IMG/VR virus record: IMGVR_UViG_2695420685_000022
Coordinates: 1 to 34,422 of that record
DNA length: 34,422 nt
DNA from: a virus
Taxonomy: Duplodnaviria; Heunggongvirae; Uroviricota; Caudoviricetes
Strand: one strand, 5' to 3'
Part shown: positions 15,001-18,000 of the stretch, one piece after another
How positions within the stretch are numbered: the stretch's first letter is position 1
Layout of the letters: each line of letters starts with the position of its first letter
Program-made: the position numbers

Positions 15001-18000
15001 TTTATCGATCGCGCGCTGGCGATTGGTGTGCTGTCCTGATTTTGTGGAGAAAGTTGATGCGTGATATTCAGATAGTTCTTGAACGCTGGGGGGCATGGGC
15101 TGCAAGTGGTAACACCGGGGTGGACTATTCTCCGATCGCTGCCGGATTCAAAGGACTTTTACCATCTGCCACTAAACCACGTCCGGCCTGCTGCGATGAT
15201 GACGGACTTATCATTGAAAACTGTCTTGCTCGTCTGAAGCAGAAAAAACCTGAGGAGTATTCGCTTCTCATTGCTCATTATTTGTTGCGAATATCAAAAA
15301 GACAGATAGCCAGGACGAGAAAGAAAAGCGAAAAAGCAATACGAATTGAGATGCAGATAGCCGAAGGGTTTATTGACGGATGTTTGTCTGTGCTGGGGGT
15401 AAGACTGGAGATGGACGACTGGCTGCTAAAAAAGTAAAAAATGATTAGTGCGGTCCGCAAAAAGTATGTCAGTATGTTAAGAGTGGTTACTTCGCCCGCG
15501 AGCGGGTTTTTTTATGGCTGAAATCGGTCCAGTACAGTAAACGTGCTGGTGGCGGTGAATACCTGTCTTTCAGCTTGCTGGCTTTTTCGACAAGAGTTAT
15601 TGGTGTGTCACGTTAACCGAAAAAGGGAAAAAGACATGCTGAAACAGCAGGATATGACAGAAACCGCCAGAGTGGTGTTTAATGAATTAAGCGTCACCGA
15701 ACCGGCGACAGTCGGGGAGATTGCGCAGAATACTTACCTTTCACGCGAACGCTGTCAGTTAATACTGACCCAACTTGTTATGGCGGGTCTGGCAGACTAT
15801 CAGTTCGGTTGTTACAGACGCCTTCCGCAGTGAAGGCTTTTTTATTTGTGGTAAATGGGCGGCTGGTGGGTGTTAGGGGCACTCACCAGCCATCTGCTCA
15901 TGCGTTGTGGTCACAAGCAAACCTCAGGCCCATCTGCTTTGCGCAAAAGCGGTATGAGCCTATCAGAGAAGTGCTTATTGATCTATGGCTAATACTGTAA
16001 AAATATCCAGTTGTGAGTTAATCAACGCCGACTGCCTGGAATTTATCCGGTCGTTACCCGAAAATTCTGTTGACCTGATAGTCACGGACCCGCCGTACTT
16101 TAAAGTGAAGCCTGAGGGCTGGGATAACCAGTGGAAGGGCGACGATGATTACCTGAAGTGGCTGGACCAGTGTCTGGCGCAGTTCTGGCGGGTGCTGAAA
16201 CCTGCCGGAAGTCTTTACCTGTTCTGTGGTCATCGCCTGGCATCTGATATCGAAATCATGATGCGTGAACGCTTCAATGTGNGGAAATATCCTTTCAGTA
16301 AACTGTCAGTGCCGGATGCTCACCCGTGTCCGGCGCACGCACTCCACCTCACCCGTGGAGAACTCCTTAATTACCAACCTTAGCTTCGTTGGTTAGCTAT
16401 TAACGCGGGTATGTAATCATTCTGGCAATGCTTAATGCCGCTGCTTTTTCCAGCCTGGTGATATCCTGCTCCAGAGCGGACAGATTTTCAGCCTGCTTAG
16501 CCCTGGCTTCATTGGCCCATTTCAGGTCCTGCGCTGCCTTAATTTTCTGGTGCATCCACTCATAAAGTTCATCATCGGTATAGTCTGGCGCGATGATGAC
16601 GGGTTCTCGTTTCTGCATGTCGGCTCCTTGTGGTTAGCGTTGCCTGCTTTTAACCACGTCAGGCGAGGTGGTATCCTCTGAGGGGTCTGTTACTCGAGAG
16701 GAAATTGGTTATGAATACAATCAAGTTTTCTTGCCCAGAATGTGGCGGCGAAGTCTTTGACACATCCTTTAAACCGCATGGCTCTGACAGTTTCGCGGGA
16801 GCCATCTGCAAAAATTGTGGTCACCTTGTAACTGAAGATGAGTCCTCGCAGTTTGATGACGAAATCGTTGACAATATCTTCGGTGCACTCACCAGAGACT
16901 TTCTGAAGTAAAGGCGCATACCGCTTAGTTACCGCTCTGATAATTCTTACCTGTCCGGCAATGGCGCTGATATCAATATAAAGCGCCATCGCTGTTTCTT
17001 TGCTGATCCCTGGATGCCTTCCATTCTGATGTTTGACTTCGCCCACTGAGAAATCCTCTGTTTCCCCTTAACGCCGGGGTAGCGGAACAAAAAACCTGCT
17101 GCATAGTTAAACGTAATCCCCGCCGTCATGTTCATACGCCTCAGGCTGGCTACTTAACCCCTGACCACTGCCGGGTAACTCGAAGTATTGCCCTGCGTTC
17201 TGTGGGGCGGGGTGGGTTTATGGATACAATTTACAAATTAAAATTTAACCGGTCAACATGTTTATTATTAAATTTGTAATTGCGAGCTGTTGCATCAGTC
17301 CCAAAATGGGACTACTATACAGTTATGAAGATTATCTCAGTTAAAACACTCAGGGATTTTTGGGCGGAGAATCCTGATGCAGAACAACCGCTAAGGGCAT
17401 GGGTGGATGAGGCGGCAAAAGCTGACTGGAAAAGCCCAGCAGACATTAAGGCACAATACCGAACGGCCAGTATATTGAAAAACCGGCGCGTGGTATTCAA
17501 CATAAAAGGTAATCATTACCGTTTAATTGTTGCAATTGCGTATCAGCGAGGATGGGTATTTGTTAAATTCATCGGAAACCACAAGGAATACGATACTATT
17601 GATGCTGATACCATCGAACTGGAGTAAGCATGAACATCAAACCTATTCGTACAGAGCAAGATTATGAAGCCGCGTTGCGTGCTGTTGAACCCATGTTCGA
17701 CAATGAGCCCGAAATTGACACGCCTGAGGGGGATTTTTTTGAGGTGATGTGTTTGCTAATAGAGGAATATGAAAAAAAACATTATCCCATTGAGCCACCA
17801 TCCCCAATTGAAGCTATAAGATTTCGCATGGAACAGCAGGGGCTGACTGTGAAAGATTTGGAACCCGCAATTGGGAAAAAAAATCGGGTTTATGAGGTGT
17901 TGAATGGTACCAGAAGCCTTACGTTACCAATGATTCGCCGTCTTCATAATCAATTTGGTATCCCCCTGGAAAGCCTGGTTGGATTATAAAATCTGCTAGT

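Follow-up and report, generated by a model that had tools for sequence, protein, structure and literature searches.

Messenger RNA leaders in which alternative pairings mask the start codon are a well-known kind of element. In phage Mu, the Com protein opens a translation-inhibition stem-loop of the mom mRNA. The leaders of ermC and cat consist of four segments, in which pairing of 1 with 2 and of 3 with 4 competes with pairing of 2 with 3, and a helix of the 3:4 type masks the methyltransferase initiation region. The start of the MS2 maturation gene is controlled by long-distance sequestration and a kinetic folding trap of the 5' leader. In this work, we describe a leader of about 145 nt ahead of an N6_N4 DNA methyltransferase gene in the IMG/VR virus record IMGVR_UViG_2695420685_000022, positions 1 to 34,422 of which form the stretch analysed here (the window). 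We hold with moderate confidence that this leader acts in cis and would gate translation of a toxic late-phage methyltransferase by alternative pairings. A previous reading of the same DNA, here called the original prediction, had flagged a short conserved stem in this spacer as a possible translational control element or processing site.

The locus resembles com-mom in that a toxic DNA-modification gene lies in a phage late operon with a small open reading frame (ORF) immediately upstream, and in having a start-occluding mRNA stem, indicated here by prediction and covariation (helix P6, 15972-15983 with 15909-15919). However, Com is a small Cys4 zinc finger, whereas the upstream protein here has two cysteines, is winged-helix-like and is lacking at 11% of loci; with five to six helices and a long-range pairing of segments S2 and S3, this leader is also much larger. 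With the erm and cat leaders it shares the predicted scheme of S0:S1 plus S2:S3 against S1:S2, with S2:S3 lying over the initiation region, but it lacks a conserved translatable leader peptide and a properly spaced Shine-Dalgarno (SD) sequence, its upstream AUG is lost in one leader (L337), and no antibiotic or stalling logic is evident. As in MS2, the start is closed by pairing with a part of the leader that lies about 65 nt farther upstream, the closed form is the equilibrium state, and translation is perhaps limited to a folding window; here, though, the RNA is a late mRNA of a DNA phage, not genomic RNA, and the alternative helix P2 is also under selection, while a pure kinetic trap needs none. 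The SAM-III (SMK) box is similar as a conserved multi-helix 5' untranslated region of a gene for an enzyme that uses S-adenosylmethionine (SAM), with exclusive pairings of which one masks the initiation region. It differs in that the present leader has no Rfam match and no SD to mask, nt -1 to -13 being paired instead. An IMG/VR catalogue of structured RNAs contains four candidates upstream of DNA N-6-adenine methyltransferase genes (PMC10690425), which share the IMG/VR source, the class of genomic position, the cis-regulatory assignment and the experiment-free approach; by description alone, the leader is set apart from them by their average of 67 nt and by a text that gives no two-state model. 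With that comparison made at the level of description, the leader family, its link to M.EcoGII-type methyltransferases and its two-state architecture appear to be undescribed.

The leader of the first of four copies in the window (copy A) contains the following elements.

15846..15990, + strand: leader copy A, from just past a terminator-like hairpin to 3 nt beyond the methyltransferase AUG.
15855..15860, + strand: segment S0 (AUGGGC), pairing with S1 (helix P0', which extends P1) or, through 15856-15860, with GCCCA at 15928-15932 (helix P0).
15861..15891, + strand: hairpin P1, with 5' arm 15861-15872 (or to 15874), a loop, and 3' arm 15880 (or 15878) to 15891; formed in both proposed states.
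15893..15902, + strand: segment S1 (UCUGCUCAUG), the 5' strand of helix P2 with 15912-15921; 15896-15901 pair alternatively with S0 (P0').
15909..15921, + strand: segment S2 (GGUCACAAGCAAA), the shared strand, pairing with S1 (P2) or with S3 (P6).
15927-15933 with 15954-15960, + strand: helix P3 (GGCCCAU with AUGAGCC), with a constant C.A mismatch.
15934-15940 with 15946-15952, + strand: helix P4 (CUGCUUU with AAAGCGG), with loop GCGCA; P3 and P4 form an extended hairpin, 15927..15960.
15972..15984, + strand: segment S3 (UGCUUAUUGAUCU), the 3' strand of P6, which ends at nt -1, has no SD and contains GATC.

Segment S2 is central to the two folds. Its core (GGUCACAAGC) can pair with GCUCAUG of S1, giving P2, or with GCUUA..UGAUCU of S3, giving P6, which abuts the SD-less AUG at 15985; as P2 and P6 share S2, they cannot coexist. 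In the window, P6 joins 15909-15913 to 15979-15983 and 15915-15919 to 15972-15976 (GGUCA-C-AAGC/GCUU-AU-UGAUC). We followed the helices through two alignments, A7 (97 distinct sequences) and A8 (94 distinct sequences, richer in divergent phages), which were fitted to a model containing P1, P2, P4 and P5, with P6 and P0' outside that model. P6 was paired in 89.9-94.8% of cases, and four of its pairs changed on both sides, with A-U giving way to G-C or G.U at two of them and G-C also giving way to A-U. The variable G.U pairs in P1, P0' and P6 are possible on the + strand alone.

The duplex energies of S2 against the 20 nt before the AUG formed a block-diagonal matrix over three lineages. Cognate combinations reached -9.6 to -12.4 kcal/mol in the common clade, about -9 to -12 kcal/mol in the Morganellaceae-phage clade and -14.1 kcal/mol in L337, while most cross-lineage combinations lay between -3.4 and -8.3 kcal/mol. 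In L337 both strands are replaced, giving an almost continuous 12-bp duplex (GGAGAGUCGCAG/CUGUAAUUUUCC) that ends at nt -1; its energy was reached by 0 of 2000 shuffles of S3, and in the other lineages 1-4% of shuffles reached theirs. The S1:S2 matrix showed the same trend more weakly (L337, -13.4 against -3.4 to -6.6). Of the functions that the original prediction had offered, the translational control element is thus the best supported, with P6 pairing 12 nt that abut the AUG and with lineage-specific complementarity in three lineages.

Both folds carry evolutionary support, each clearly exceeding its shuffle and slide controls. The start-sequestering structure III (P0', P1, P6 and P3/P4) was 90.6% paired and had a covariation score of 0.193, where shuffles gave 0.131 (0/500) and slid partners 0.091 at most; the alternative, structure I (P0, P1, P2, P4 and P5), was 87.9% paired and scored 0.172 against a control of 0.097. 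Neither accounts for everything: structure III leaves the covariation of P2 pair 15895/15919 unexplained, and structure I the lineage-specific complementarity of S2 and S3. With the folds enforced, the sequestering fold is the minimum free energy structure, lying on average 5.4 kcal/mol below the alternative and being the lower one in 82 of 96 sequences; for the window copy the values are -62.1 and -50.5 kcal/mol.

Based on these features, we propose the following mechanism. In the closed ground state, S0:S1 would prolong P1 into a long irregular hairpin and S2:S3 (P6) would close over the P3/P4 hairpin, leaving the SD-less initiation region base-paired and therefore, as we propose, translation low. 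In the open state, S1:S2 (P2) would form, and S3 together with the start codon would be freed. P1 is expected in both states and, with S0:S1, may nucleate the closed one. Such a leader would restrict, or set the timing of, the translation of an enzyme whose constitutive production does harm. Candidate triggers for opening are the folding kinetics during fast Q-modified transcription, a protein (the small winged-helix protein, for example, or the methyltransferase), a metabolite, or ribosomes that translate the upstream ORF.

Several points weigh against this gating model. Conservation, helices, compensatory changes, mutual exclusivity and predicted energies come from the sequences and their folding, and translation initiation as the regulatory output is what we infer, from predicted pairing alone. 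Independent events are few, with essentially three P6 lineages, one of which is the single sequence L337, and the shuffle control ignores the relatedness of the sequences. As A7 and A8 are model-fitted, the counts for P1, P2, P4 and P5 lean towards structure. P2 is weak in the common clade (75% paired, ensemble probability 0.07) because of its tandem C.A/A.C mismatches, and these mismatches would read as G.U on the opposite strand. One leader, L026, keeps the 5' helices without P6, and another, L328, has the 3' tail only. Finally, the short leaders of Xenorhabdus and Photorhabdus lack P2-P4, and P1 there is terminator-like and followed by UUUU, so that P1 may have a simpler primary role.

P1 contains the stem that had originally been flagged. 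The 8-bp stem lies where it was placed, with GGCTGGTG (15861-15868) perfectly complementary to CACCAGCC (15884-15891), but the hairpin is longer than had been claimed, comprising 12-14 bp between 15861-15874 and 15878-15891; the full fold GGCUGGUGGGUGUU / AGG / GGCACUCACCAGCC has 14 pairs, including 3 G.U. In the diverged copy B, the 3' arm was said to have changed CA to TG with pairing kept through wobbles. Pairing is indeed kept, although the changes number three rather than two (U>C, C>U and A>G), and copy B carries one loop change as well. This preservation had been taken as a hint of structure. The element is structured, but the comparison of A with B is itself nearly uninformative: the three substitutions are all transitions in the 3' arm, which is rich in C and A and lies opposite a G/U-rich strand, so that 13 of the 14 possible transitions there leave a standard pair, compared with 4 of 14 in the 5' arm. 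An 8-bp stem by itself is not exceptional either, as the window contains 29 perfect 8-bp stems with loops of 3-20 nt, against 9.2 in shuffles.

Stronger support came from folding and from broader alignment. A region of 181 nt folds better than its shuffles (z = -3.5 in copy A, -3.8 in copy B), and folding recovered the hairpin and extended it to 12-14 pairs. Rather than lacking covariation or being disrupted in most homologues, P1 was paired in 97.8% of cells in A7 and 96.5% in A8, with double-sided changes at 7 of 12 pairs, among them G-C to A-U (two positions) and G-C to U-A; U-A was also seen to become A-U or C-G. The whole stem is replaced in Providencia-type phages (GACUGUAAAGGUG/CACCCUUACAGUC), in L337 (GACCGAUG/CAUCGGUC) and in one further leader, L326 (GACAGUGAGGAUG/CAUCCCCACUGUC). 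Within the common clade, the G/U-rich 5' arm is near-invariant and the 3' arm varies by changes that yield G.U, which is the pattern expected of a + strand RNA helix. The ensemble pair probability of P1 is 0.94-0.98, and the + strand version is the more stable one in 91 of 97 sequences. P1 does not stand alone but is the constant core of a leader with five to six helices.

P1 could instead be a terminator or a hairpin that stabilises an mRNA end at a phage module junction, with no switch involved. It would then form a second read-through barrier behind the hairpin at 15820-15846, directed against RNA polymerase unmodified by Q, and the remaining spacer would be conserved for unrelated reasons. 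We consider this explanation improbable as an account of the whole leader. It draws on the Xenorhabdus and Photorhabdus hairpins, which are GC-rich, flanked by an A-tract and UUUU, and classical in appearance, as well as on four IMG/VR contigs that keep the small ORF and P1 with another cargo gene next and the breakpoint directly after P1; the late operon is moreover read by antitermination (PMC7547250). On the other hand, all long-form leaders lack a U-tract after P1 (AUCUGC or AUUCGC follows), P1 stays with the methyltransferase even when the small ORF is missing, and a further 110 conserved nt, the compensatory changes in P2, P4 and P6, and the fixed distance to the AUG would be left unexplained. 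In the window, P1 is not an intrinsic terminator, the stem being followed by AUCUGCUCAUG with no U-tract and no call there by the pattern scan; the neighbouring hairpin at 15820-15837 with its U6 does satisfy the rule of a GC-rich hairpin and an immediate U-tract. In many Xenorhabdus short forms UUUU comes right after the hairpin equivalent to P1, which by visual inspection fits this rule too. Termination may, however, describe an ancestral role of P1 or its role in the short forms.

The short-form leaders, for which our analysis covers P1 only, consist of GGUGAAAUG, a hairpin and then about 50 nt. A hairpin is predicted at the P1 position in 28 of 28 distinct Xenorhabdus/Photorhabdus leaders, with many different stems. 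In many of the Xenorhabdus short forms (for example L050 at about 540-579, L052 and L055), the apparent AUG begins a two-codon mini-ORF, AUG GAA UAG; a GUG 3-4 nt after it aligns with methyltransferase residue 5, and UGGCU directly after P1 is complementary to AGCCA immediately 5' of this GUG. This suggests that the methyltransferase start is perhaps masked in the Xenorhabdus short forms too. The four IMG/VR contigs with other cargo (L099, L137, L163 and L182) keep the small ORF and a P1 with four G.U pairs (GGCUGGUGGGUG / CACCUGUCAGUC), and past P1 they continue as AT-rich unrelated sequence into a different gene (MVVVCSVIMVCSPINIFLEKDTLSLKPG...); their junction is a recombination breakpoint exactly at the 3' side of P1. 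The leader looks modular in other loci as well: in L328 (436-606) all that is left is the 3' tail, running from AAAGCAAAGGGAGC up to the AUG and preceded by an unrelated terminator, and L026 (2368-2509) keeps S0 to P4 with an unrelated 3' tail, a different methyltransferase N-terminus and no S2:S3 pairing.

The remaining helices add to the support for both states. P0' was 97.7-99.3% paired with an ensemble probability of 0.81, and L337 carries a compensatory G-C to A-U change in it (AUAGGC/GCCUGU). The clearest covariation was found at P2 pair 15895/15919, which shows C-G, U-A and A-U in comparable numbers; in the divergent clade GCUCAUG/CACAAGC of P2 is replaced by RCCCGUU/CACGGAY, and L337 has GCCUGU/GCAGGC. 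In P4 (ensemble probability 0.85), pair 15935/15951 appears as U-A, U.G and C-G, and the inner or closing pair of P3 (0.66) appears as C-G and U-A. An alignment made with MAFFT only agrees in direction with the model-based structure. P0 was 99.8-100% paired in the A7 and structure I counts. As a closing helix (UGGGC/GCCCA) it was rejected, since its sole double change (L013) fits P0' plus P3 equally well and L337 would break it. Also discarded was a helix before the start, P5b (AUCAG/CUGAU), which was 85% paired, showed no double-sided changes and was broken in many sequences. Nearly all common-clade leaders have constant C.A/A.C mismatches, a tandem in P2 (15899-15900/15914-15915) and a single one in P3 (15930/15957); those of P2 become C-G/G-C pairs in the divergent clade. 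They are possibly A+.C wobbles or a deliberate weakening of P2. The outer P6 strands are GATC-like words, with UGAUC always present in S3 and S2 being either GGUCAC or GAUCAC (15909-15914 and 15979-15984 in the window, and in homologues), so the leader DNA has one or two Dam sites exactly in the pairing segments.

Compensatory support for both states is also what would be expected if a factor acting in trans, or a ligand, flipped S2:S3 to S1:S2 and back. In that case, the junction of P0/P0', P1 and P2 would bind a phage protein, the methyltransferase, or SAM or S-adenosylhomocysteine (SAH); a candidate protein is the small winged-helix protein encoded upstream, which would act as Com does on the mom mRNA of Mu. 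We judge this to be unlikely. The many invariant unpaired nucleotides at junctions and loops, the SAM-dependence of the gene product and the small ORF adjoining the leader in 89% of loci speak for it. On the other side, the leader resembles no riboswitch class of Rfam, with E values of up to 10 allowed, the small protein has two cysteines and a winged-helix-like character rather than a zinc finger of the Com type, and 23 of 207 leaders have no small ORF. A homologue of the small ORF lies directly upstream in the other 184, so the small winged-helix protein is not obligatory. Should the leader nevertheless be a previously undescribed sensing RNA, opened by a signal (a late protein, the methyltransferase, or SAM/SAH) at the P0/P1/P2 junction, to which we give an equally low probability, lambdoid and Stx prophages would own a dedicated post-transcriptional checkpoint on a promiscuous adenine methyltransferase. 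The small ORF product itself shows a weak winged-helix (TrmB-like) match, belongs to phrog_331 (function unknown) and contains 2 Cys (MLKQQ...GCYRRLPQ).

The AUG in S0 raises the question of control by a leader ORF, in which ribosomes starting at AUG 15855, or ending on the small ORF, would melt S0:S1 and let S1 take S2; a variant for E. coli-type leaders invokes termination at UAA 15990-15992 and re-initiation at the overlapping AUG. The S0 AUG is present in 97 of 97 distinct long-form leaders of A7, the four-segment scheme (1:2 / 3:4 against 2:3) is that of attenuators, and the small ORF of Morganellaceae phages stops merely 10 nt upstream of S0. The window has an ORF of 45 codons, 15855 to 15992, that ends with AUGGCUAA and overlaps the methyltransferase start, an arrangement shared by 16 of 97 leaders. 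However, the ORF can be anything between 3 and 53 codons long, its stop falls between -118 and +32, and in 34 of the 97 leaders it ends after 7 codons, in the P1 loop. Furthermore, the peptide is not conserved in Providencia-type leaders, no usable SD is present (GGA lies 1 nt before the AUG), many short-form leaders have no AUG, and L337 has AUA for AUG with a compensating change in S1, which shows that pairing and not coding constrains the S0 triplet. We therefore regard leader-ORF control as doubtful, clearly more so than a terminator or a ligand switch. A coding role as a small protein gene from AUG 15855 was excluded, the ORF lengths being erratic with 1-nt indels in loops. A second upstream ORF, from ATG 15954 to TAA 15992 and coupled to the methyltransferase start, was rejected as well: it occurs in the E. 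coli type only and elsewhere runs on out of frame. The 45-codon ORF of the window begins MGGWWVL..., with tandem Trp codons UGG UGG.

A last alternative concerns the DNA or the opposite strand, namely an antisense RNA from the - strand or a DNA inverted repeat that the winged-helix protein would use as its operator. Read on the - strand, the C.A/A.C mismatches that are constant in P2 would become G.U pairs, as would the C.A of P3; the folding energy of the whole leader is similar on both strands, and the P1 inverted repeat adjoins the gene of a putative DNA-binding protein. Against an antisense RNA, no promoter-like site was found on either strand between 15000 and 16400, the variable G.U pairs in P1, P0', P5 and P6 become A.C on the - strand, P1 is stabler on the + strand in 91/97, and the fixed spacing to the AUG and the paired nt -1 to -13 point to a sense mRNA. 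An operator would keep its sequence symmetry, whereas the P1 arms change by compensatory, non-symmetric substitutions. Hence, both forms appear very improbable. A sigma-70 promoter inside the leader was also considered and dropped, with none found on either strand.

We then examined the conservation and distribution of the leader. Among 80 genomic loci encoding relatives of the methyltransferase, the spacer from CTGTGGAAATGGG to the ATG retained about 80% nucleotide identity across genera, with sequence farther upstream sometimes unrelated; it is shared by Escherichia, Salmonella, Citrobacter, Enterobacter, Klebsiella, Kosakonia, Buttiauxella, Mixta, Erwinia and others. A pattern search of IMG/VR with the 20-nt 5' arm of P1 alone, in which the methyltransferase was not used, gave 121 matches. 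The methyltransferase follows at a fixed distance of about 130 nt in 114 of them, 3 more are cut by contig ends, and 4 have other cargo. The leader remains with the methyltransferase where the upstream gene differs, and so does P1 where the small ORF is absent. A covariance model (R1) built from 56 sequences gave the four copies in the window scores of 107.6-108.5 bits (E between about 5e-28 and 9e-28; copy A, 108.5 bits at about 5e-28). Across about 0.8 Mb of phage DNA flanking the loci, it picked up all long-form leaders and no other site. None of the 4227 families of Rfam 15 matched the spacer at gathering thresholds, nor credibly at E up to 10; the best match, P26 on the - strand, had 18.4 bits against a gathering threshold of 36 (E = 0.12) and is noise. 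A 661-nt query, 15440-16100, which covers the region just downstream of Q, the small ORF, the spacer and the first ~115 nt of the methyltransferase gene, matched 2394 of 5426 complete E. coli genomes (about 44%), including Stx2-converting prophages, and the leader also occurs in prophages of many other Enterobacterales. A metagenome scan with GCTGTGAAATNGGCG gave 120 chance matches and no leader. Relatives of L337 sought through its methyltransferase yielded no second L337-like leader; that protein lineage otherwise has short-form leaders.

The downstream gene encodes a SAM-dependent enzyme of 352 aa with a PF01555 match (E = 2e-44). It is 91% identical to the methyltransferase of phage 1720a-02, which is "very similar" to M.EcoGII (PMC5778455). 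M.EcoGII-type enzymes methylate adenines in nearly any context, and M.EcoGII is silent in the lysogen and deleterious if expressed constitutively (PMC5778455). Membership of the M.EcoGI/M.EcoGII group was judged by a beta-class N6_N4 methyltransferase of about 349 aa in a lambdoid prophage with a sequence close to M.EcoGII, and the M.EcoGII-family label of the window enzyme is a probable one by sequence, reached through the 1720a-02 enzyme as intermediary. No SD-like 4-mer was found at -20..-4 of the methyltransferase start in 92 of 97 distinct homologues, so the earlier statement that this gene has no SD was correct. To our knowledge, how phages restrain and time M.EcoGII-type enzymes has not been addressed so far. 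If true, the two-state model would offer a testable mechanism for post-transcriptional gating of phage anti-restriction methylation, based on long-range sequestration of an SD-less start and a competing anti-sequestor helix, and would add a widespread class of cis-regulatory RNA to lambdoid late operons, beside stx genes. A possible practical use lies in the cloning and expression of M.EcoGII-type enzymes.

Around copy A, the late operon runs in the order Q antiterminator, tR'-like terminator, small ORF, terminator-like hairpin with U6, spacer and N6_N4 methyltransferase. The same gene order is annotated in phages phiP27, SfV and 1720a-02, where tRNAs and stx, or lysis genes, come next. The neighbouring features and the further leader copies are as follows.

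15042-15437: Q antiterminator gene, on the basis of PF06530.
15494-15507: tR'-like strong terminator (GCCCGCGAGCGGGU followed by U7), closing a short region, 15440-15515, just after the Q gene.
15636..15833, + strand: small upstream ORF, 65 aa from its ATG; the mechanical ORF runs from GTG 15543.
15820..15846, + strand: terminator-like hairpin GCCUUC-CGCAGU-GAAGGC, then U6, from pattern scan and fold; overlaps the small-ORF stop codon.
15985..16281, + strand: 5' part of methyltransferase copy A, an N6_N4 DNA methyltransferase.
28103..28246, + strand: leader copy B, the sole variant copy, followed by a methyltransferase fragment, 28241-28673.
28723..28867, + strand: leader copy C, with the same sequence as A; its full methyltransferase gene is 28862-29920 (352 aa).
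30630..30774, + strand: leader copy D, with the same sequence as A; its full methyltransferase gene is 30769-31833 (354 aa).

The region 15440-15515 corresponds to the pR'/tR' position, which is the source of the StxS small RNA in Stx phages (PMC7547250). In Morganellaceae phages, the stop of the small ORF comes just 10 nt ahead of S0.

The window is scaffolded E. coli lambdoid prophage DNA with a single N at 16282 and runs of N at 28674-28684 (11 N) and 30581-30591. The homology of the copy A methyltransferase to full-length copies ends at about nt 302, near the N at 16282; the copy B gene ends at the 11-N run, and copies C and D start directly after N runs. As every leader copy lies at or beside a scaffold join, the four copies are not independent observations. 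The window is thus a concatenation of contigs broken in this repeat, and the tandem cassette arrangement is perhaps an assembly artefact. Diverged direct repeats with 77-89% identity (30191-30580 against 32765-33160, and 14375-15021 against 26016-26719) are present around the tRNA genes and within the DUF968/HNH gene that precedes Q, which is consistent with two related prophage late regions joined in one scaffold. Elsewhere in the window, Rfam and ARAGORN matched isrK beside a C4 antisense RNA (9722-9910), the sok antitoxin RNA (23116-23296), STnc100 (33543-33715), and tRNA-Met(CAU) with tRNA-Arg(UCU) downstream of the methyltransferase (29961-30193), a set of RNAs that is typical as a whole of lambdoid and Stx-type prophages.

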